From Nitrosopumilaceae archaeon (lineage in GTDB: Archaea > Thermoproteota > Nitrososphaeria > Nitrososphaerales > Nitrosopumilaceae), in the NCBI GenBank assembly GCA_965200155.1, contig CBDATR010000009.1:126287-190286 (forward strand): a stretch of DNA of 64,000 bases. The letters run 5' to 3'. A program made the translations under genes and the position numbers. The notes under the pieces were generated by a model. That model was not told the origin of the DNA. It ran no database searches and saw only the letters and a program-made list of their open reading frames with translations. Below, piece after piece: positions 3,285 through 55,020 of this stretch (positions are counted from its first letter, which is position 1; each line of letters starts with the position of its first letter).

Positions 3285-3690
3285 GTATGAGTTCACGTGT
3301 TTTGATCACATAATAAGATAGAATGCATCCCAGTTTTTTAATTATAATTGCATTCTGGCAGCAACCTCGTTCATTACAGAAAGGCCCTGAGCCCTCCATG
3401 TCTGAACACATATGGACATGCGGCGCATGGCCCTTTCACCACCCTTTATCTGACCACTAATCTTGTGGAAAAATGCAGGCGGTGCGGAAAGTACATCCGT
3501 ATCGCTTTCACCACCCTTTATCTGACCACTAATCTTGCGGAATACCACTGCGTATCAGAACCGGTTCCACTGCTCCACTGGATTGTTGGTCGGCGCCACA
3601 CTGTCATATTCTAAGAATACGAACATGCCTGGTATGGCCTTATTCAATCCTTTTACCTTCTTTTGCAGTTCAGTATCATCAACATCATAA
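3285..3690 (-). mobile_element. IS66 right-end fragment containing a repeat-spacer-repeat insertion
   Basis: TIR GTATGAGTTCACGTGTTTTGATCA at 3285; near identical to reverse complement of 6310-6652. Confidence 0.9.
3433..3540. repeat. CRISPR-like unit 1: 36-bp duplication (3433-3468, 3505-3540) flanking a unique 36-bp insert
   Basis: ctttcaccaccctttatctgaccactaatcttg(t/c)gg twice; empty site present in other IS66 copies (e.g. 8049). Confidence 0.9.
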
Positions 3691-3693
3691 TAC

Positions 3694-4385
3694 TAGACCG
3701 TATGCGCAGAATCACTTCTCCCACCCTGCACGTCTAAACCAAGTTTTTAGATACGAACAATTGGCCTAGTATCATGGGTTTTCACATACAGACTCGTGTG
3801 AAACAGAAAAGTTAAGACCTAATTTTGTAGTACCAAGTATGCTAAAAGCAGAAGAACTTACCAAGGAGCAGTTAGCCACAGAGTAATACCGGCTACACAC
3901 CGAGGCCAAAGTAACAAACCTGCGTGGCAAACTTGAGTATGAGTTCACGTCTTCCGGAATCTTGTGCACAAATCACATTAACTGTCGCGATCAGTTGTGC
4001 GTAAATTTAGACACAGGTGAACTCATACAAACTTGAAGCTCAAACAAAGAATGCCCTCGTTTCAAATCTCGATGACATCATAGAACGCAAGGATCAGCTT
4101 CATTCCCTGACCGGATGCACCACGGAAGAGTTCAAATGAATACTAACCAGATTCACAGAATACGTAGAGTCCCTGGAAGGCGATGATGCACGGCGATTCT
4201 TAGAACTTACAAATGATCGCGGGCACGTGAACAAATTTCCCATTAGGCATGTACTCTTAGTTACACTGATACGCCTGCGCTGCAATACAAAGCAGGAGCT
4301 TCTTGCTGCAATACTCAAGATAAACCAGTCAAACATATGCCGTTACATCTAGTTTACAAAGCAGGGACTGATCAAGGCACTCCCA
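3694..4385 (+). pseudogene. IS5-family (ISL2-like) element, left end plus N-terminal HTH half of transposase, with stops and a MITE insertion
   Basis: End tagaccgtatgcgca; from 3839 reads MLKAEEL..LTGCTTEEF*..LLVTLIRLRCN..LAAILKINQSNICRY. Confidence 0.7.
3937..4028. mobile_element. MITE-A (92 bp, IS66-derived)
   Basis: TIR GTATGAGTTCAC; TSD AAACTTGA. Confidence 0.95.
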
Positions 4386-4499: not shown

Positions 4500-4524
4500 T
4501 ACCGTTTAGTTCACTCCCATTACG

Positions 4525-4616
4525 GTATGAGTTCACGTCTTCCGGAATCTTATGCACAAATCACATTAACTGTCGCGATCAGTTATGCGTAAATTTAGAC
4601 ACAGGTGAACTCACAC
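4525..4616. mobile_element. MITE-A, left arm of composite 4525-6652
   Basis: Canonical MITE; CCATTACG before it recurs after 6652. Confidence 0.9.
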
Positions 4617-4664
4617 AACCGGTGACCCAATACTGGAATTACCCTATGAGAACAAGGGGAGATA

Positions 4665-4980
4665 GTATGAGTTCACGTGTTTTGATCATTCACTAAGATA
4701 TAGGTATGAGTTCACGTGTTTTGATCATTCACTAAGATATAGATTGGTATGGTAATATTTTACTTAAATACCAAATTTGCAATAAGAATCTAATGAGAAG
4801 ACGCCGGTCCTATAAGGAATTGGAACTGGAAAATAAACTTCTTCAGGATACCCTTGCGTCTACCGAGAAAGATCTTGCACATTACAAGGAACGTGTGAGA
4901 GTATTGGAAGCATATGTGTCCCGCATCATAAAAGAAATACGAAATCTCACACAAGATTTCCAAATTATTAGGAATTATGT
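4665..4980 (+). mobile_element. Two stacked IS66 left-end stubs (4665-4703, 39 bp; 4704-4980, 277 bp)
   Basis: Near-exact duplicates of the start of the element at 4981. Confidence 0.9.
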
Positions 4981-6652
4981 GTATGAGTTCACGTGTTTTG
5001 ATCATTCACTAAGATATAGATTGGTATGACAATATTTTACTTAAATACCAAATTTGCAATAAGAATCTAATGAGAAGACGCCGGTCCTATAAGGAATTGG
5101 AACTGGAAAATAAACTTCTTCAGGATACCCTTGCGTCTACCGAGAAAGATCTTGCACATTACAAGGAACGTGTGAGAGTATTGGAAGCATATGTGTCCCG
5201 CACCACAAAAGAAATACGAAATCTCACACAAGATTTCCAAATTATTAGGAATTATGTAAATGAATTGAATGAGAAATTAGAAGAAAAACAGGGGAAAATT
5301 GCGGTACTCACAACGCGACTTAAATATTATGAGAATGCTCACTCGCCACCATCCCTTCAATCCCTCCAGTACAAGAAGCGAAAACAGGAGGAACAGAAGC
5401 GAAAACAGGGAGATAATAAGCAACAGACAGAAGCCAGTACGAAATCAGCCAAAAAGGCTGGCGCGCAAAAGGGACACAAGGGGGTTTCCCGTTCCCACAA
5501 CCCCGGCAGAGTAGTGCATCACACCTTTGAGTACACACCAATATGTGAGTGCGGCAATATGATGACAAAAATTGGTTGGAAACAACGACACATAACGGAA
5601 TTAATACCAGCCAAAATAGAGGAGACCCTTCATGTGATAGAAATGGCTGCATGCAAGTGCGGCAAAAAACAACTGGCCCCAGCAGCGGGCGTCCCAAAGA
5701 GTGGTAGTTTTGGGGTTCAATTATGTGGTGCCATCACCGCATTACGCGCAGAAAAGATTCCAATAAAACGCATACCTGTAATTTCGAGGGATCTCTTCGG
5801 CCTAAATATATCGGTGGGTGCAGTAAACAACATAATTGCCAGGGCCGCCGATGCATGTGAATCATTTATGGAAACAATTCATGAGAATATAATAAAATCA
5901 CCCAGCATTCATGTGGACGAAACTGGTATATCACTGGCGGGTAGGCGTGGCTGGGTATGGGGGATGCGAGCCGAAGAGTGGATGATGTCCATATATGACA
6001 AAAGTAGGAGTTCAAATGTAGTGAACAAATACCTGAACGGTTACCAGGGAGCGATAGTAACGGACAGGTACGTTGTGTACCGCCGGTTTGATGACGGTGG
6101 GAAGCACCAGTTGTGTTGGGCGCATTTATTGCGCGATACCCAGGCATTACATGCAGGATTCTATATCGATCCCGGTGCTCAGGACGCCCGGATCAAACTT
6201 GACAACGACCTGAAAGGATTGTTCCGGAGCGCACGGGAATCCCTGAATCACTGCGGGCCGTCCGCGCAATTACGACACTCATTTGAGACAGGAGCAGATG
6301 CATCAGTACTGTGATGTTGATGATGCTGAACTACAAAAGAAGGTAAAAGGATTGAATAAGGCCATACCATGCATGTTCGTATTCTTAGAATATGACTGTG
6401 TAGAGCCCACCAACAATCCAGCGGAGCAGTGGAACCGGTTCTGATACGCAGTGGTATTCCGCAAGATTAGTGGCCAGATAAAGGGTGGCGAAAGGGCAAT
6501 GCGCCGCATGTCCACATTCGTATCATGTGTTCAGACATGGAGGGCTCAGGGCCTTTCTGTTATGAACGAGGTTGCTGTCAGAATGCAGTTATAATTAAAA
6601 AAACTGGGATGCATTCTATCTTATTATGTGATCAAAACACGTGAACTCATAC
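4981..6652 (+). mobile_element. IS66-family (ISBst12-type, single ORF) insertion sequence, 1672 bp
   Basis: 24-bp TIRs GTATGAGTTCACGTGTTTTGATCA; TnpC-like ORF only. Confidence 0.9.
5070..6595 (+). pseudogene. IS66 TnpC-like DDE transposase, frameshifted near 6300 and with a stop at the 6430-6442 scar
   Basis: Coiled coil, NAHSPPS, GAQKGHKG, Zn ribbon, IHVDETG, VTDRY, HQLCWAHLLR, then PTNNPAEQ in another frame. Confidence 0.9.
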
Positions 6653-6945
6653 CCATTACGTGCTACTCTTCGCACCATCATACGGTAACATATTACTGAA
6701 CAAAATACACCGAGCTAACTTGCTTCTACCATGTTTAGATGCGCCTACTTAAACAGTTACGGACCATTCCTGTACTACTGAAATGATTTTAACACTTAAT
6801 ATAACCCTCACTTAAGCTTATTAAAACTTATATATTTACCATTGTTGCGATTATATATGGAAGTTTATCAATTAGAAAATAATAAATTAAAAATAATTGA
6901 AGAGGAAAAAACGATCGGGGAAAAAGAAAAAAGGGTACAATCACT

Positions 6946-7037
6946 GTATGAGTTCACGTCTTCCGGAATATTGTGCACAAATCACATTAACTGTCGCGAT
7001 CAGTTATGCGTAAATTTAGACACAGGTGAACTCATAC
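6946..7037. mobile_element. MITE-A, left arm of composite 6946-9567
   Basis: Preceded by CAATCACT, which follows the MITE ending at 9567. Confidence 0.95.
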
Positions 7038-7251
7038 CATAATGCTTCTGTTAACCAAGAATTTTTCATACTTATTTATATAGAATACGGTAAAATCCAA
7101 AAAAAAATCTACCATAACCGAAAAATGCGTGAAATTAAACCCAGTGCATACATGAATCACCTCTGATACATATTATCAGAAGTTGGACGCTCCATTATCT
7201 GGCCACTATGTGATAGATTTAACTTAAATTGGTTATATGTGGTTCTAACAC

Positions 7252-7900: not shown

Positions 7901-8304
7901 GTATGAGTTCACGTGTTTTGATCATATAATAAGATAGAATACATCCTAGTTTTTTAATTATAATTGCATTCTGGCAGCAACCTCGTTCATTACAGAAAGG
8001 CCCTGAGCCCTCCATGTCCGAACACATATGGACATGCGGCGCATGGCCCTTTCACCACCCTTTATCTGGCCACTAATCTTGCGGAATACCACCGCGTATC
8101 GCAGAGTCTGCTCCGCTGGATTGTTGGTGGGCTCCACACTGTCATATTCTAGGAATACGAACATGCCTGGTATGGCCTTATTCAATCCTTTTGTATGAGT
8201 TCACCTGTGTCTAAATTTACGCACAACTGATCGCGACAGTTAGTGTGATTTGTGCACAAGATTCCGGAAGACGTTAACTCATACATCCTTTTACCTTCTT
8301 TTGC
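7901..8304 (-). mobile_element. IS66 right-end fragment (unscarred, empty site) with MITE-A at 8193-8284
   Basis: Reads PTNNPAEQTLRYAVVFRKISG; MITE TSD ATCCTTTT. Confidence 0.9.
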
Positions 8305-8551: not shown

Positions 8552-9475
8552 TACCTTATGCGCATGATTGACAATAACAGCCCATGTTGCTTCAAACTGG
8601 GGTGTATTTTATGGCACACAATCAGTCAAGCATGAACAATGTGAATGGCACCTGCCAGCACTAACGTATGCCGTGATTGCAAATGTCATGTAGTGGGGTG
8701 ACCGGATCTTGATGACGTATATCATGAGTGAGCTAAATGGTTACCACAAAACCCATTAATTTAGTGGATTTTCTGATGAGTAATATTCGAATTATAATAA
8801 CACGGAAATTATGGACAGATATTTTTCAAAAATTTCTTGTATCTGGTATGCTTGTGCATAATGTGTAAATTATGCAACCCGGATACTACGAGTAGATCTT
8901 CCCGGAATTCCTCACGACTACCATCATATACCTGACTTAATCTACGATATACCTTTAGCATTCGAATTACATTCTCGATTAATATGCGCCTTTTTGATAC
9001 ATATTGGCTGTATTTCCTTTCAGTTTTAGTGAGTGATTCCCTACCCCTGTATGGAATTATGACCTTTGCGCCGGGTAGGAAGTCTTTCATCCCCTGGTAT
9101 CCTGCATCTGCTATTACTGTTATCTTATCGGATGGTGGCGTGGTTGATTCTTTTAGGGACTTGCCCCATTTGCCGCCAAGGGGAATATCATTCTTGAATA
9201 TGCCATAATCGTGTCTTTTTCCCTCATATACTCCACTTACGTGAATTATCAGTCTTTTCTTGTTTGATGTTATCTGTACGTTATACGTGTGGGTTTTTTG
9301 TTTACCAGAGTACATTGCCTCCTGATTTTTTTCAGGACGTTGTACGCGTACATGTGTCCCGTCAGTCTTTATCTCCCCTCCGGCTCGACCGGGAACAATT
9401 TCCTTAAAGTCGGGTGTTGACTTGATTTGTGATATTGCTTTTGCAACGGTATCGGCCGTTGGAAGTATCTTGATC
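8550..9475 (-). pseudogene. IS5-family (ISL2-like) element, DDE C-terminal half plus right end
   Basis: IKTDGTHVRVQRP, YSGKQKTH, GKRHD, IADAGYQG, RILIENVIRMLK. Confidence 0.85.
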
Positions 9476-9567
9476 GTATGAGTTCACGTCTTCCGGAATC
9501 TTGTGCACAAATCACATTAACTGTCGCGATCAGTTGTGCGTAAATTTAGACACAGGTGAACTCATAC
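9476..9567. mobile_element. MITE-A, right arm of composite 6946-9567
   Basis: Followed by CAATCACT. Confidence 0.95.
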
Positions 9568-10010
9568 CAATCACTAATAGAATCAAACTTACATATAATC
9601 TTTCCAAATATGCAATTTTTAAAAACTGAATCTACAATTGGTAACTATCGACTAGACTCGGTAGCCTTTGATAATAATACTAATTCTTTTGTTATACTTG
9701 AATACAAAAATACTAAAAAACATGATGTGGTCGGGCAATGTATGTCATACCATGCTTTATTCACCAGTCATATGGCTGATTTTCATGTGTTATATTTTGA
9801 TTGTAATAACAAAATACCAAAAGACGTAAAGGCGGATAAATGTAGTGTAATCGTTATAGCACCAGATTATGCCAAATACCAAATAGGTTCAGTGAACTCT
9901 GCCTCGTGGCTTTATCTGTTCAAGATCACAAAATATGGGAATGATATAATAACACTAGAGGAAATTGGGAAAAATCGATTACCACGCAAGAATAAAAGTG
10001 GAGAAAATAG

Positions 10011-12359: not shown

Positions 12360-13768
12360 TGTATGTCCTCCAGGGCGTGGGCCGTACGCAACAAGTCACC
12401 ATCGTGGCCGCTATCGGCCATAATCTGTATTCCTACAGAGAGTCCACCGCTCTCCCCGTATGGCACGGATATTGCGGGCTTGCCCGCCAAATTGGCCATT
12501 ACGGTATTAACATCAATATCAAATAATGATACGGGGTCATCTATTCTCTCACCCAGCCTGAATGGTAGTACAGGTACCGTGGGGGAGAGTAAGTAATCAT
12601 ATTCACGGAATAACGAGTCCAGGTTTCTAGTAAGCCGATCCTTAACTTTTAGCGCCTTTAGGAAATATTTCCCGGAATAACCGGCCGACGTTACGAATCC
12701 GCCCGCAATTATTCGGCGCTTTACCTCGGGTCCGAACCGGCTCCTGGACTTTGTAACGTATCGGTGAAATTCGTAACTACTAATGTCCATGTCGTAACCG
12801 TATCGTATATTGTCATAGCGGGCAAGATTACTGGCAGCCTCAGCAGAGGTTATGGTATAGTAGGCGGCCACTGAGTAGTCTACCATATCAAGGGATACCT
12901 CGTCTATACTAGCGCCCAGCTGGGTCAGACGCGATATTGCCTCATCCAGGACATGACGTATTCCCGACGGCATGGAAGGGGGAACCATCTGTTTTATGAT
13001 ACCCACCCTCTTGTTCTTTATTGTGTATGCGGGGTCCTGGCCAATGCCGGTATTAGCCGGTACGGTCATGGTGGTATGATCGTACGGGTCCCGGCCGCAT
13101 ATGATACTCATGACCGTCTCAATATCCGATACAGACCGCGCCATGGGTCCTATCTGCTCTATACTGTTGGCATAAGATATCAGGCCATACCTGCTAATCA
13201 TGCCATAGGTGGGCTTAAAACCCGCCACACCACAAAAACTTGCAGGATTCCGGACAGAACCGCCGGTGTCAGAACCCAGCGATACGGCAGCAGTACCTGC
13301 CGCCACCGATGCGGCGCTTCCGCCAGAGGATCCTCCGGGCACATATGACTTGTTGCACGGATTCAGGGTTGGCCCAAAGCTGCTAAATTCGGTAGTCAGA
13401 CCCATGGCAAACTCATCCATGTTAGTTTTGCCTACTATAATGGCGCCCTCATCACGCAGACGCGTTATCACCGTAGCATCATATGGCGATACATATGACT
13501 CTAGCATGCGCGATGCGCATGTGGTCGGCATGCCCGTAACACAGATGTTGTCCTTGATTGATATGGGCACCCCTGCCAGACGGCCTGCATCATTACCGGA
13601 GCGTATCTTTCTGTCTATATCCTTGGCCTGCTCCAGCATTTGTGGGTTCACAGTAATGTAGATGTTCATATCTTTGGTCTCCTCTATCCGCTCTGCTATG
13701 GCAGATATGGTCTCCTGCGCCGTTACCTGCCCGTCCCTTATGGATTTGGCCAAGGACGAAACGGACAT
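12356..13768 (-). CDS. gatA: Amidotransferase subunit A
   Basis: GKTNMDEFAMG, PGGSSGGSAA, GSDTGGSVRNPA. Confidence 0.97.
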   Translation of the reverse strand: MSVSSLAKSIRDGQVTAQETISAIAERIEETKDMNIYITVNPQMLEQAKDIDRKIRSGNDAGRLAGVPISIKDNICVTGMPTTCASRMLESYVSPYDATVITRLRDEGAIIVGKTNMDEFAMGLTTEFSSFGPTLNPCNKSYVPGGSSGGSAASVAAGTAAVSLGSDTGGSVRNPASFCGVAGFKPTYGMISRYGLISYANSIEQIGPMARSVSDIETVMSIICGRDPYDHTTMTVPANTGIGQDPAYTIKNKRVGIIKQMVPPSMPSGIRHVLDEAISRLTQLGASIDEVSLDMVDYSVAAYYTITSAEAASNLARYDNIRYGYDMDISSYEFHRYVTKSRSRFGPEVKRRIIAGGFVTSAGYSGKYFLKALKVKDRLTRNLDSLFREYDYLLSPTVPVLPFRLGERIDDPVSLFDIDVNTVMANLAGKPAISVPYGESGGLSVGIQIMADSGHDGDLLRTAHALEDIQ

Positions 13769-13775
13769 ATCCTAG

Positions 13776-14033
13776 CTAACCTAGTCCGGGAGCCCTTATG
13801 TACCCTCTTGCATCCCTGCGAGGCGAGGAGCCGGACCAGGATACATGCGTATCATCCCGCAAGGAGTCCAGGGGTATCGCCTGTATCTTGAGTGGTTCCT
13901 CATCTATTCCGGCCTCGTCCAGGGTATCAAAAAAGTCCAGCATCTTTTGTATATTCTCTGCATACTCCTGTGGTTTGTCTATTTCTACACGCATCATAAG
14001 GGCCACTGCTGCAACCTCGTCCCCAGATACCAT
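13776..14033 (-). CDS. gatC: Amidotransferase subunit C
   Basis: Size, operon position, LRDD and C-terminal IRAP motif. Confidence 0.85.
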   Translation of the reverse strand: MVSGDEVAAVALMMRVEIDKPQEYAENIQKMLDFFDTLDEAGIDEEPLKIQAIPLDSLRDDTHVSWSGSSPRRDARGYIRAPGLG

Positions 14034-27573: not shown

Positions 27574-28235
27574 GTATGAGTTCACGTGTTTTGATCATAT
27601 AATAAGATAGAATGCATCCCAGTTTTTTAATTATAATTGCATTCTGGCAGCAACCTCGTTCATTACAGAAAGGCCCTGAGCTCTCCATGTCTGAACACAT
27701 ATGGACATGCGGCGCATGGCCCTTTCACCACCCTTTATCTGTCCACTAATCTGTATGCCGTATTTGGCAAGATAACACCCTTGGCCAAATTCACCTTTCA
27801 CCACCCTTTATCTGCCCACTAATCTGTATGAGTTCACCTGTGTCTAAATTTACGCATAACTGATCGCGACAGTTAATGTGATTTGTGCACAAGATTCCGG
27901 AAGACGTGAACTCATACACTAATCTTGCGGAATACCACTGCGTATCAGAACCGGTTCCACTGCTCCGCTGGATTGTTGGTCGGCTCCACACTGTCATATT
28001 CTAGGAATACGAACATGCCTGGTATGGCCTTATTCAATCCTTTTACCTTCTTTTGTAGTTCAGTATCATCAACATCACAATACTGATGCATCTGCTCCTG
28101 TCTCAAACGAGTATTGTAATTGCGCGGACGGCTAGCAGGGATTCACGTGCGCTCCGAAACAATTCTTTCAAGTCGTTGTCAAGTTTGATCCGGGCGTCCT
28201 GATCACCGGGATCGATATAGAATCCTGCATGTAAT
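27574..28235 (-). mobile_element. IS66 right-end fragment with repeat-spacer-repeat unit and MITE-A (27826-27917)
   Basis: TIR at 27574; MITE TSD ACTAATCT. Confidence 0.9.
27722..27830. repeat. CRISPR-like unit 2: 36-bp duplication (27722-27757, 27795-27830) flanking a unique 37-bp insert
   Basis: ctttcaccaccctttatctg(t/c)ccactaatctgtatg twice. Confidence 0.9.
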
Positions 28236-28424
28236 GTATGAGTTCACCTGTGTCTAAATTTACGCATAACTGATCTCGACAGTTAATGTGATTTGTGCAC
28301 AAGATTCCGGAAGACGTGAACTCATACGTAATGTATGAGTTCACCTGTGTCTAAATTTACGCATAACTGATCTCGACAGTTAATGTGATTTGTGCACAAG
28401 ATTCCGGAAGACGTGAACTCATAC
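28236..28424. mobile_element. Tandem MITE-A pair (28236-28327, 28333-28424)
   Basis: Both share private variant gatctcgac; separated by gtaat. Confidence 0.92.
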
Positions 28425-28633: not shown

Positions 28634-29182
28634 ATGAGTGGTATAAGTAACCCATACGAGGAAATGTACAAGAAATGGATAGAGCAGAATATGCAGACAA
28701 TCAGTGAGATGCAAAAGAACTTTGAGCAGATGAGCGGGAATATGCAGAATGCAATAAAAATGCCCGCGGAGATGCAAAAGAACTTTGAGCAGACCAAGCA
28801 GATGTGGGAGAATATGCAGAATGCAATAAAAATGCCCGCGGAGATGCAAAAGAACTTTGAGCAGGTTAACAAGTATATGCAAAACGCGTATACGCCTGAT
28901 GGATGGTCCAAAATGAACGAGCAGGTTAACGATATGAGTAAAATTCCACAAACATGGACAGCCTTCATTGATCAAATGTCAAAGATGTCCCCATGGCAAC
29001 AACCGCGGGAGCAACTTTTTGTACCGAACATGCTGATGAATTGGGCTGCGTTTAAGACGTCCATAGGGAGTAATGGTCGAATATCCATACCCGAGGCTGA
29101 GCGCAGTGCATTAAAGATTCGCGAAGGTGATCTGGTCCAGGTTATAGTACTACCAGTATCAAAGAGGGAGGTGAAAGAATGA
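28634..29182 (+). CDS. AbrB/MazE-domain regulator with Met/Gln-rich repeat N-terminus (PhaR-like)
   Basis: C-terminal SIGSNGRISIPEAER..LKIREGDLV; lies next to phasin-like gene and phaEC. Confidence 0.75.
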   Translation: MSGISNPYEEMYKKWIEQNMQTISEMQKNFEQMSGNMQNAIKMPAEMQKNFEQTKQMWENMQNAIKMPAEMQKNFEQVNKYMQNAYTPDGWSKMNEQVNDMSKIPQTWTAFIDQMSKMSPWQQPREQLFVPNMLMNWAAFKTSIGSNGRISIPEAERSALKIREGDLVQVIVLPVSKREVKE

Positions 29183-31565: not shown

Positions 31566-33334
31566 TCAATAGTACGAAAAGTAAGTCCGCTTAGGATCCG
31601 GCGTACAGTAGTTCAGATTGCACAAGCCACGAAAGGCTATGGTAAAGAGAATAACAGAGGAATCAAGACAGTACATCATAAGACAGCACAAAAGAGGCGT
31701 TGCCGCAACCAAAATGTATGAGTTCACCTGTGTCTAAATTTACGCACAACTGATCGCGACAGTTAATGTGATTTGTGCACAAGATTCCGGAAGACGTGAA
31801 CTCATACACCAAAATAGCTCAAGATCTACACATCAGTTCAAGACACGTACGAAGATTGTGAACCAGAGGACGGGAACGACTCGAGTAAAGATGGGCAGGC
31901 CTATGATACCAATCACCGCCACCCAGATACGAATGGTAACTGAAGCAATACAGCAAGGATCCCGCCGGAGTAGTACGTATTGCAGAGGCTTAGACATGAT
32001 ACATATCGCGCAGTATATCACATAATGAAAAAGAACGGTACGACAGGATCATCACCTGCAAAGTCAGAGTGGGTACGCTATGAGCGTAAATATTCCAATA
32101 CAATGTGGCACTGGCATGTCGTGAAAGATGAGCGCTTCAGGGGACTGAATCTCATAGATGATGCATCCAGGTGTATAGTCGGGGCGGCACTATTCGAGCA
32201 TACAACCTCAGAGAACGCCGTTCTATTACTGAGACTGGCAATGAAACGATTCGGCGCCCCTGCATCTCGGATAACGGCGCGTGTTTCGTAGGACAATAAA
32301 AGGGCAAGAAAAGTTGGAAACCAACACTATTCAAGGAAGAACTGCTGGATCAAGACATCATACTAATCAATTCCAGACCATACCACCCGCAGACAAATGG
32401 CAAACTGGAGCGCTTCCATGGAATGATTGAGGACGAGGGGACTCTTATTTAAGAGTCCAACGAGATAGTATGAGTTCACCTGTGTCTAAATTTACGCATA
32501 ACTGATCGCGACAGTTAATGTGATTTGTGCATAAGATTCCGGAAGACGTGAACTCATACCTATATCTTAGTGAATGATCAAAACACGTGAACTCATACTT
32601 CTACCCGGCGCAAAGGTCATAATTCCATACAGGGGTAGGGAATCACTCACTAAAACTGAAAGGAATTACAACCAATATGTATCAAAAAGGCGCATATTAA
32701 TCGAGCATGTAATTCGAATGCCAAAGGTATATCGTAGATTAAGTCAGGTATATGATGGTAGTCGTGAGGAATTCCGGGAAGATCTACTCGTAGTATCCGG
32801 GTTGCATAATTTACACATTATGCACAAGCATACCAGGTACAAGAAATTCTTGAAAAATATCTGTATGAGTTCACCTGTGTCTAAATTTACGCACAACTGA
32901 TCGCGACAGTTAATGTGATTTGTGCACAAGATTCCGGAAGACGTGAACTCATACAAATATCTGTCCATAATTTCCGTGTTATTATAATTCGAATATTACT
33001 TATCAGAAAATCCACTAAATTAATGGGTTTTGTGGTAACCATTTGTATGAGTTCACGTCTTCCGGAATCTTATGCACAAATCACATTAACTGTCGCGATC
33101 AGTTATGCGTAAATTTAGACACAGGTGAACTCATACACGAGATATGGCATTATGACAGTCTCCGGGATTATGTTGACTACTACAATGAGAGAAGGTCGCA
33201 CTTCTCACTGGATATAGATAACGGCGAAACGCCGCTTCAGGAATAAAAAGGCGACCTAGACAATTAGGGCAAATGATGCAAAATGGATGGAGCGGGATGC
33301 CAATGACTAGCGGACCGACTTTTCATACATTACA
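31566..33334 (+). mobile_element. Decayed IS481-family element with MITE-A (31716-31807, TSD ACCAAAAT) and composite 32468-33136
   Basis: Fragments RYERKYSN.MWH, IDDASR, PQTNGKLERFH, YYNER; right end ...cattaca. Confidence 0.85.
32468..33136. mobile_element. Composite of inverted MITE-A arms (32468-32559, 33045-33136) carrying a 39-bp IS66 stub, an IS5 fragment and a nested MITE (32863-32954)
   Basis: TSD ACGAGATA on outer ends; nested TSD AAATATCT. Confidence 0.9.
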
Positions 33335-33765
33335 GATGATACTGAACTACAAAAGAAGGTAAAAGGATTGAATAAGGCCATACCAGGCATGTTCGTATTC
33401 CTAGAATATGACAGTGTGGAGCCGACCAACAATCCAGCGGAGCAGTGGAACCGGTTCTGATACGCGGTGGTATTCCGTAAGATTAGTGGCCAGATAAAGG
33501 GTGGTGAAAGGGCCATGCGCCGCATGTCCATATGTGTTCAGACATGAAGGGCTCAGGGCCTTTCTGTTATGAACGAGGTTGCTGCCAGAATGCAGTTATA
33601 ATTAAAAAAACTGGGATGCATTCTATCTTATTATGTGATCAAAACACGTGAACTCATACGAATTATGTATGAGTTCACCTGTGTCTAAATTTACGCATAA
33701 CTGATAGAACCGGTTACCAGTTAATGTGATTTGTACACAAGATTCCGGAAGACGTGAACTCATAT
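33335..33765 (+). mobile_element. IS66 right-end fragment (33335-33659) and MITE-A variant (33667-33765)
   Basis: Similarity to other copies. Confidence 0.88.
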
Positions 33766-53706: not shown

Positions 53707-53922
53707 AACAAAAGACTGTCTGAAAATTATGGTTAAAAAGACGGTGTAACCATTGCATGATTAACCGCGGTGACAATAGTCCGTGGTTAATACGCACCCA
53801 AGGGCGAATATAGACATGAGTTCACCTCTTAATCCCGTGCCCAAATCGTACTGATAACGAACCATCGTGCGTAAATTTAGACACTGGCGAGTCGGTACGC
53901 AACCACAGAGGGTGATTAATGC

Positions 53923-55020
53923 TCACCCAAAGGTGAAGGTGAATATCTCCAGGCCTGGCGAGTCGGTACGCAACCACAGCTCGTGCTGACCGGCAGTCTC
54001 AGAGGTCACAACGTTGTACAGATCTGACTCAGATATACGGATGGTATTGCCGTCAACATCCGAACCCCGGTACTCAGCTGCGATGGGTTCCCCGTCAAGG
54101 AATACCTCGATGGTACCGGAACCCGCGGCCACTATGTTGACCTCCTTGGCCTGATATATCAGCTCTATTCCACCACTCTCTGAGATCAGCGTCATGCCTT
54201 CCCGTCCGTTGTGCCAAGTGCCATCCATGTAGAAGAGACCCACACTCTTGGAATCCGGTATGCTATATGATACGTCGGTGTTACGGACAAATCCCTCCGG
54301 GTTACCCAAGTTGTTCCTGCCAAAGGCCAAGCCATACCCCAGGTATAATTCCGGAGTTCGACCCCTGGTATGATCAAACTGCTCTATTTCCACCAAGCTC
54401 TGTACCGGCATAATGGCCATGTTCAGGGCTTCGGCTCTCTGCGCCAATAATACCTGGATTACCTCTTCGGTCTCCTCGTAGCTGCCCTCACCTATGTGAT
54501 CATATCTGATAAATCCCTCATGATCCGCAATGTACTTGCGTGGCCAGTAACGATTCTCAAAGGCGTTCCAAGTATCCCTGTCATTATCCAGCACTACCGG
54601 GTACTGTATGTTGTATTTGTCCACCGCCTGCTGTACGTTGTTTGCGTCCTTCTCGAACTCGAACTCGGGACTGTGTATGCCTATTATAAGCAGACCCTGA
54701 TCCGCGTACTTTTCATCCCATGCCGTTATGAATGGCAGTGTCCTGATGCAGTTTATACAGGAATATGTCCATATGTCATACATGACTACATTTCCCTCAA
54801 TACGGCTCTGAAGATCCTCCGGTGTCGTGTTGATGTAGTCGGCTATGCCCACTATATCCGGGGCTGGGCGGGATAGCGACTGGTTGAGTATGGGAACATC
54901 CATGTCCAGATATACAGAGAGGTTCGCCTCTTCCACACTGCCAAAGTAGACATTGATGCCGACAATGCCTACTGCCACGACCACACCTAATACTATGGCT
55001 GTCTTTAACTCGGTCTTCAT
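53923..55020 (-). CDS. Thioredoxin-like protein (DipZ C-terminal type)
   Basis: WTYSCINCIRT, HSPEFEFE, RTPELY, FTFG. Confidence 0.9.
   Translation of the reverse strand: MKTELKTAIVLGVVVAVGIVGINVYFGSVEEANLSVYLDMDVPILNQSLSRPAPDIVGIADYINTTPEDLQSRIEGNVVMYDIWTYSCINCIRTLPFITAWDEKYADQGLLIIGIHSPEFEFEKDANNVQQAVDKYNIQYPVVLDNDRDTWNAFENRYWPRKYIADHEGFIRYDHIGEGSYEETEEVIQVLLAQRAEALNMAIMPVQSLVEIEQFDHTRGRTPELYLGYGLAFGRNNLGNPEGFVRNTDVSYSIPDSKSVGLFYMDGTWHNGREGMTLISESGGIELIYQAKEVNIVAAGSGTIEVFLDGEPIAAEYRGSDVDGNTIRISESDLYNVVTSETAGQHELWLRTDSPGLEIFTFTFG

Follow-up and report, generated by a model that had tools for sequence, protein, structure and literature searches.

Two copies of an IS66-family insertion sequence (IS) from a Nitrosopumilaceae archaeon carry a 36-bp direct duplication around a short, unique insert, and both units are very probably products of ectopic spacer integration by the organism's own type I-G Cas4-Cas1 fusion and Cas2, the adaptation proteins of its CRISPR-Cas system. 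The two copies lie in a 64,000-nt stretch of DNA, referred to here as the window, which corresponds to C9:126287–190286 of a draft genome of 2.38 Mb in 51 contigs (G000). The integration sites, empty sites and host elements of the window are listed in Table 1.

At site 1, the two copies and the insert together lie between the letters ggcc and aatacc. The duplicated unit measures 36 bp and recurs with a period of 72; its two copies, CTTTCACC...TTGTGG and CTTTCACC...TTGCGG, differ at one position. The period at site 2 is 73, and the two 36-bp copies again contain a single mismatch. The boundary of the second insert is ambiguous by one C, and the insert is 36 nt long if the last C is assigned to the repeat. 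These data bear out a sequence-only reading of the window, which had described 36-bp duplications around unique inserts of 36 and 37 bp. Common to all four copies is a 31-nt core, for which we found seven matches in the window at ≤3 mismatches, compared to 0 expected (100 shuffles). In a five-way alignment, the three other window sites are single and are without exactly the 72 or 73 extra bases, confirming that three further IS66 copies have the site in its empty form. Across the genome, 73 loci account for 75 matches to the core, and two copies are present only at the two window loci. The other 71 IS66 loci hold the core site undoubled ('empty'), three of them in the window and 68 elsewhere in the genome.

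Site 2 also abuts a miniature inverted-repeat transposable element (MITE). The last five letters of both site-2 copies, GTATG, are the start of the MITE and not IS66 sequence, which indicates that the MITE was inserted before the spacer was integrated. The duplication kept its 36 bp despite this changed end sequence, as would a ruler. The determinants have to be sought within the shared 31 nt or past the CTTTCA end.

The only Cas1 match in the genome is on the contig that contains the window, ∼35 kb upstream of it. The protein is a Cas4-Cas1 fusion of 549 aa (NF049935 cas4g_cas1g, 710.7 bits; cut-off 560), and a Cas2 of 91 aa follows it, both being encoded at C9:68770–70844. Among the genome contigs searched, the closest relatives of the fusion share just 51% identity with it and belong to unrelated phyla. 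An array of 289 repeats, 287 of which are identical, occupies C9:71011–92087. The two degenerate repeats are the last two of the array, and hence the leader is on the cas2 side. The resident repeat is 36 nt long (ATTTCCGCAGCCTAACGGTTGCGGCCTCATTGAAGG), and 249 of the 288 spacers are 36, 37 or 38 nt long (85, 101 and 63 spacers, respectively). Integration of the Cas1-Cas2 type, doubling a repeat-length target, had been proposed from the window alone; the repeat length of 36 and the spacer mode of 36–38 back this proposal, as does the presence of Cas4/1-Cas2 and a true array on the same contig. Past the array, on the opposite strand, lie genes for a type I-G 'Cas3-extension' protein, Cas3g, Csb2 and Csb1. 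The type I-G components that scored above their cut-offs are Cas4g/Cas1g, Cas2, Cas3g, Csb1 (Cas7g) and Csb2 (Cas5-6). An IS (DDE_Tnp_4) adjoins csb1, where no Cas8g/Csx17 gene was seen (L003 6717–8326, equivalent to C9:98716–100325). An incomplete effector module is possible, yet none of the array spacers is self-targeting. Outside the array, the resident repeat was found only as one solitary copy, far away at C43:128228 (≤7 mismatches). The resident repeat forms an 8-bp hairpin at −14.3 kcal/mol; for the IS66 units, folding energies are 0 to −4.2 kcal/mol, values that do not improve on those of shuffled sequences.

We then scanned the whole genome, array excluded, for direct repeats of ≥28 nt spaced 30–300 nt apart. 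This yielded 323 repeat pairs with an intervening spacer, 78 of them at periods 71–75 and ≤6 at each of the other periods. Pairs in this peak have a duplication of mostly 36–37 nt and an insert of mostly 35–37 nt. After one coding tandem repeat was removed, 68 events remained, of which 62 have distinct inserts. The periods of these 62 are 71 (4), 72 (26), 73 (18), 74 (8) and 75 (6); all 62 thus fall at 71–75, and 249 of 288 periods in the array fall at 72–74. Duplication lengths do not vary widely across the 62 events (36–37 nt in 49 cases). In 48 events the duplicate copies are identical, and most events are thus young.

The targets of these events represent 50 unrelated sequence families. 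By location, 31 of the 62 events are in single-copy DNA and 30 are in repeated DNA, so that integration is not, as proposed earlier, directed into a transposon. Nor was a working transposase disrupted in the window, as had been suggested, the two IS66 copies there being remnants of 342 and 510 bp from a 1741-bp element. Elsewhere, an open frame of 495–523 codons is split by insertion at C10:229607 and C10:288031, and some events are in frame within open frames (e.g. 599 codons at C22:16729). The period is divisible by three in 32/62 events and in 102/288 array units (Fisher p 0.02), a mild sign that frame-preserving insertions survive better. For event C10:141058, a paralogous empty site was found at C43:124012–125078. 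Orthologous empty sites proved unusable, with DNA identity of only 64–79% between same-genus genomes at the one locus tried.

Many of the inserts come from the genome itself. At least 30 identical letters were found elsewhere in the genome for 37 of the 68 ectopic inserts, compared to none of the 288 array spacers. The best genomic match of an array spacer was 28 identical letters, all others being ≤22, and this best match is probably that of spacer M58 against an ectopic locus on C25. Hits representing other copies of the same filled IS locus were set aside before protospacers were counted, which left 29 inserts with a true protospacer at a distant locus, with unrelated flanks; the sources are therefore distant loci and not adjacent DNA. 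The site 1 insert sequence occurs at seven other places in the genome, the best of which (C23:24950–24983; 34/34, the match extending to 36 nt) is inside a 149-aa open reading frame (ORF) without a Pfam match. The site 2 insert is a 35/36 copy of C24:402598–402633, in a gene for an aIF5B-type initiation factor.

An insert for which no genomic source was found, at C25:4760, overlaps array spacer M58 over 26/26 nt (E 4.6e-11). Overlaps of the same kind exist among the array spacers themselves, and this one indicates that the ectopic sites and the array draw on one fragment pool. The 26-nt core common to the insert and M58 had no matches in viral contigs and none in metagenome contigs. The first and last letters of the array spacers are unbiased. 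Protospacer flanks match target ends more often than shuffles do, and some junctions share 1–4 letters. By our own arithmetic, this sharing arises because a few insert letters are counted within maximally extended duplications, with chance accounting for the rest, and microhomology at the junctions was set aside on these grounds. As a separate observation, contig C10, which makes up 22.7% of the genome, holds 15 of the 29 self protospacers (binomial p 0.0006), and integration targets are not enriched on it (15/62). C10 may be a hot region or a replicon for fragment capture.

Events are concentrated near the cas genes. The 10 kb upstream of the array contain five of the 62, compared to an expectation of 0.26 (p 8e-6). 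Of these five, two make up a three-unit locus between cas4/1 and cas2 (C9:70400–70587; L002 18901–19088). The unit duplicated there contains the TAG stop codon of cas4/1 and, one base on, the TTG start codon of cas2. As we read the sequence, cas4/1 terminates in the first copy and cas2 begins in the last, such that both frames are intact, with 148 bp inserted between them.

A target motif was fitted over orientation and 1–4 nt of boundary slack. Its positions are −3 (A), +3 to +5 (T, G and A/C, in that order) and +26 (C/G), and we regard it as tentative. The resident leader-repeat junction (agt/ATTTCC, the slash marking the junction) fits four of the five motif positions, and some targets are strikingly similar to this junction, such as aat/ATTTCTGCATAG at C10:149048. 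At C24:352098–352298, two ectopic events 21 nt apart, with opposite inferred orientations, occupy the arms of a palindrome (AATGC...GCATT); this pair agrees with the proposed motif (A-N-T/AATGC).

A second IS66 hot spot lies near the N-terminus of the transposase, in a 36-nt stretch encoding LASTKKDLAHYK that is present at 66 loci. Fifty of these loci have one unit, nine have two, six have three and one has four, and six unrelated inserts are found among them. Among the inserts at this site, the oldest is flanked by copies that have diverged; it is in frame and forms part of the full-length transposase. In both lineages with further inserts, the newer ones all lie to one side of it, namely upstream in the coding direction. 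This one-sided growth is the polarity of a CRISPR array. The insert GAGAATGAG... occurs in seven IS copies, indicating that it was spread by transposition or recombination after integration.

Public sequence runs and related genomes were also used. Eight runs from two studies hold the cas-proximal stretch, and contigs from four runs were aligned to L002:10000–19450. Three of these runs (X1, X5 and X6) have contigs that span the ectopic locus C9:65224 (L002 13725–13832), with 0–2 differences and an unchanged insert. The contig from run X3 (1152 nt) has the same flanks at this locus, with 25 changed and three added letters, and all those listed fall within 13758–13795, which is the insert. It follows that another population has this duplication around a different, spacer-sized insert at C9:65224. 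For event C9:64791, contigs from X5 and X6 likewise cover the first copy and the greater part of the insert. At most of the exact 36–37-bp duplications, C9:62508, 70400 and 70477 among them, run contigs end inside the duplication, which we take to be a limit of assembly. The runs holding cas-proximal DNA are labelled sponge metagenome, and the genome has archaeal amoA and no mcrA, from which we conclude that the organism is a sponge-associated ammonia-oxidising archaeon.

Cas4g/Cas1g scored above the cut-off in seven of 61 genomes of the same family, G000 counted. We sampled five relatives at ∼360–400 kb each and applied one filter to all genomes. With this filter, G000 (289-repeat array) shows 56 events in 2.38 Mb, or 9.4 per 400 kb. 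Among the relatives with Cas4g/Cas1g, G071 (array ∼40.7 kb) has seven events in 386 kb, and a few more by eye, G061 (array ∼9.8 kb) has five in 359 kb, and G035 (array ∼2.6 kb) has none in 400 kb. The two relatives with no Cas4g/Cas1g match, G010 and G048, each have none in 400 kb. In these six genomes, which are kin and not independent of one another, the occurrence of events follows that of the integrase and roughly tracks array size.

These data are consistent with the following mechanism. The adaptation complex would capture a fragment of ∼36 bp, here from the cell's own DNA, and join its 3′ ends, one to each strand of a non-CRISPR target, at positions 36 bp apart. Gap repair would then double the 36 bp between the joints. 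The integrase may select its sites by a weak motif combined with a 36-bp ruler, and IS66 would be hit often because ∼70 copies of it are present, with two or more favoured sites. Both the catalytic step and the order in which the two strands are attacked are inferred. The absence of a repeat hairpin suggests that the ectopic units probably make no CRISPR RNA (crRNA). If so, self-derived inserts would survive in these units and not in the array. That about half of the ectopic inserts are self-derived, compared to 0/288 array spacers, is what would be expected if self-targeting from the array is lethal and the ectopic units make no crRNA.

The case for ectopic integration is carried by what was seen directly: the anatomy of the units, the match in length to the resident repeat and spacers, the presence of an integrase, the distant sources of the inserts, and a pattern that extends across the genome and the lineage. 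That Cas1-Cas2 would be the catalyst is suggested by the co-occurrence of events with Cas4g/Cas1g among the six genomes. Several results weigh on the other side. The target motif is weak, at 7.99 bits compared to 5.4–6.2 bits in 12 random-site controls (above 12/12), and the C-terminal IS66 site in the window fits it only loosely and in part. Apparent 37-nt duplications, found in 28/62 events, exceed what an exact 36-bp stagger plus chance extension would give, and the length of the stagger may therefore vary. No clear protospacer-adjacent motif (PAM) was seen beside the 29 self protospacers, whether unoriented or oriented by the target motif. TTN, the PAM of another I-G system and possibly not that of this one, flanks only 8/58 protospacer sides. 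A search with TIGR04113 did not find Cas8g/Csx17, and the control for this search gave no match either. Finally, the support from run contigs covers other events and not the two window junctions.

We considered whether such units could form without an integrase, through replication template switching or microhomology-mediated repair that copies a distant stretch and then resumes upstream. The inserts are indeed exact copies of distant genomic DNA, and the letters shared at some junctions point the same way, but such sharing is also expected from insert letters counted in the duplication, plus chance. Copying of this kind does not predict that both lengths are fixed at ∼36, as in the resident repeat and spacer, nor does it predict clustering beside cas genes, overlap between an insert and an array spacer, or zero events in the two Cas1-less relatives. 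We judge it highly improbable. Virus-borne mini-arrays and transposon-borne arrays exist, and the window units might be working mini-CRISPR arrays carried by IS66, with IS sequence serving as the repeat. Their architecture is repeat-spacer-repeat, and the unit read on the transposase strand ends in GTGAAAG, loosely resembling the TTGAAGG of the resident repeat. However, the unit is a sequence other than the resident repeat and is without a hairpin, 71 of 73 IS66 loci hold it singly, both inserts would be directed against the host itself, in one case against a gene for an essential translation factor, and the same architecture recurs on 50 unrelated target sequences. The chance that the units are working arrays is accordingly very slight. 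The sequence-only reading had spoken of nascent mini-arrays, and of this the repeat-spacer-repeat shape stands; the unit itself is not a CRISPR repeat, has no hairpin and probably yields no crRNA.

Because G000 is a metagenome-assembled genome, in a 51-contig draft that is 87.6% complete, an artefact of assembly or of chimeric reads must also be weighed, the more so as contigs from the runs lend support at loci other than the window junctions. An artefact would nevertheless have to produce 62 events of one fixed geometry that matches the CRISPR locus. Moreover, the ectopic loci C9:65224 and C9:64791 recur in independent contigs of four runs that belong to two studies, and complete, single-contig relatives show the same events. 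We see scarcely any chance that the units arose in this way.

Returning to ectopic integration by the I-G adaptation proteins, several known processes bear comparison. Work on Geobacter Cas4/1-Cas2 reportedly describes leader-proximal acquisition of spacers in type I-G. Canonical I-G acquisition shares with the events described here the protein family (NF049935), the 36-nt repeat and polar, one-sided growth. The ectopic targets differ in having no leader, cognate repeat or repeat hairpin, and the self-derived inserts gave no sign of a PAM. The target-site duplications of transposons are similar in that a staggered cut is repaired to give a direct duplication flanking an insert. However, the duplication is 36 bp here, compared to 9 bp for the MITE, and each insert is a different sequence of ∼36 bp without transposon ends.

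Non-canonical spacer integration is said to have been described by Nivala, Shipman and Church in 2018 (Nature Microbiology) for the type I-E system of E. coli with over-produced Cas1-Cas2. Passages that cite such work refer to neo-CRISPR loci formed by off-target Cas1-Cas2 integration in E. coli (PMC7054753, PMC6698737, PMC9456107, bioRxiv 10.1101/148544), and the preprint describes the evidence that it happens in nature as only 'circumstantial' and limited to two other species. As far as these passages describe them, neo-CRISPR loci resemble our events in that a spacer-sized fragment enters a non-CRISPR site with duplication of a repeat length, and repeated hits can start a new array. Compared to the E. 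coli loci in those passages, the events reported here are natural, archaeal and of type I-G, with ∼60 fixed events in 2.4 Mb, half of them self-derived; some have been spread by an IS, some are in frame in genes, and the pattern is common to related genomes. For Pyrococcus furiosus, a passage in PMC6698737 describes off-target integration by Cas1-Cas2 into plasmid DNA in vitro, with a 30-bp repeat. The features it mentions include non-CRISPR sites at repeat-length spacing, a loose likeness to repeat borders and a base preference at the joint, of which the first has a counterpart here and the other two have tentative ones; our events differ in being genomic and fixed and in following a 36-bp ruler. 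CRISPR-Cas is recorded for sponge Thaumarchaeota in the part of PMC6697440 that we consulted. In the literature outside supplements and subscription papers, we found no report of natural, genome-wide ectopic integration on such a scale, and none in type I-G or in Thaumarchaeota. The process is already known from the laboratory; a natural case this rich is new as far as the literature was searched.

A broader interpretation, which we favour with some reservation, is that I-G Cas4/1-Cas2 in sponge-associated ammonia-oxidising archaea acts as a low-specificity machine for insertion throughout the genome. It would seed polar proto-arrays (≤4 units), add in-frame 24-codon segments, including in a transposase that spreads them, and disrupt genes. 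The sites would escape interference and so keep an unfiltered record in which about half of the captured fragments are self, and adaptation would both act as a mutagenic force that can be measured and give rise to new arrays in nature. With dozens of fixed natural events, together with sources and empty sites, in this genome and at least two relatives, it becomes possible to test how new CRISPR arrays originate and what the Cas4-Cas1 fusion recognises in a target. The events also give access to self DNA as sampled before selection (about half of ectopic inserts compared to 0/288 in the array) and to the mutational cost of adaptive immunity. For annotation, they carry a warning: many of the two-repeat 'questionable CRISPRs' in such genomes are integration scars and not arrays.

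Table 1. Integration sites, empty sites and host elements in the window (positions are those of the window)
Feature	Positions	Strand	Remarks
Site 1, first copy of duplicated target	3433–3468		36 bp
Site 1, insert	3469–3504		36 nt
Site 1, second copy of duplicated target	3505–3540		1 mismatch to first copy
Truncated IS66-family copy holding site 1	3285–3694	−	IS positions 1–342 of 1741; transposase reads on minus strand
Site 2, first copy of duplicated target	27722–27757		31 nt of IS66 plus 5 nt (GTATG) of MITE end
Site 2, insert	27758–27794		37 nt
Site 2, second copy of duplicated target	27795–27830		1 mismatch to first copy
Truncated IS66-family copy holding site 2 and MITE	27574–28236	−	IS positions 1–510
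MITE	27826–27916		∼91 bp, with GTATGAGTTCAC as terminal inverted repeat; IS66 positions 181–189 (9 bp) duplicated on either side
Empty site in near-full IS66 copy	6464–6494	−	
Empty site in IS66 fragment	8049–8079	+	
Empty site in IS66 fragment	33480–33510	−	

The host element is an IS66-family IS of 1741 bp with 36-bp inverted ends and one transposase gene of ∼530–550 codons. A full copy matches PF03050 (DDE_Tnp_IS66) with an E value of 6.4e-39, and its match to zf-IS66 is weak. Positions 1–36 match positions 1705–1740, inverted, at 89%. Extents of the IS66 copies in the window were taken from blastn with the full IS (L004:1667–3407). Many IS66 copies across the genome, such as that at window 3540–3580 on the minus strand, have ...AEQALRYAVVFRK... 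replaced by ...AEQWNRF*YAVVFRK.... This variant, common to dozens of IS66 copies, is 6 nt longer and contains the palindrome GAACCGGTTC and an in-frame TGA.

The MITE with GTATGAGTTCAC, ∼91–100 bp in length, was matched by blast 637 times in the 2.38-Mb genome, with 533 matches ≥80 nt long. The window contains further MITE-related copies (D3/D4), for example at 3924–4029, 4512–4617, 6933–7038, 9463–9568 and 33032–33137. Several IS66 copies bear the MITE at an identical position beside AGATTAGTGG; this points to a site that the MITE prefers or to IS and MITE having spread together as a composite.

Three other repeats in the window deserve mention. A 68-nt repeat with a period of 72 (28725–28864) is a true tandem without a unique insert, and a 277-nt tandem duplication (4699–5252) lies in DNA rich in IS ends; neither is an integration event. 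Beside a truncated MITE end, a 25-nt direct repeat with a period of 71 (53884–53979) may represent a degenerate or truncated third event, though it does not fit the 36 + 36 geometry.

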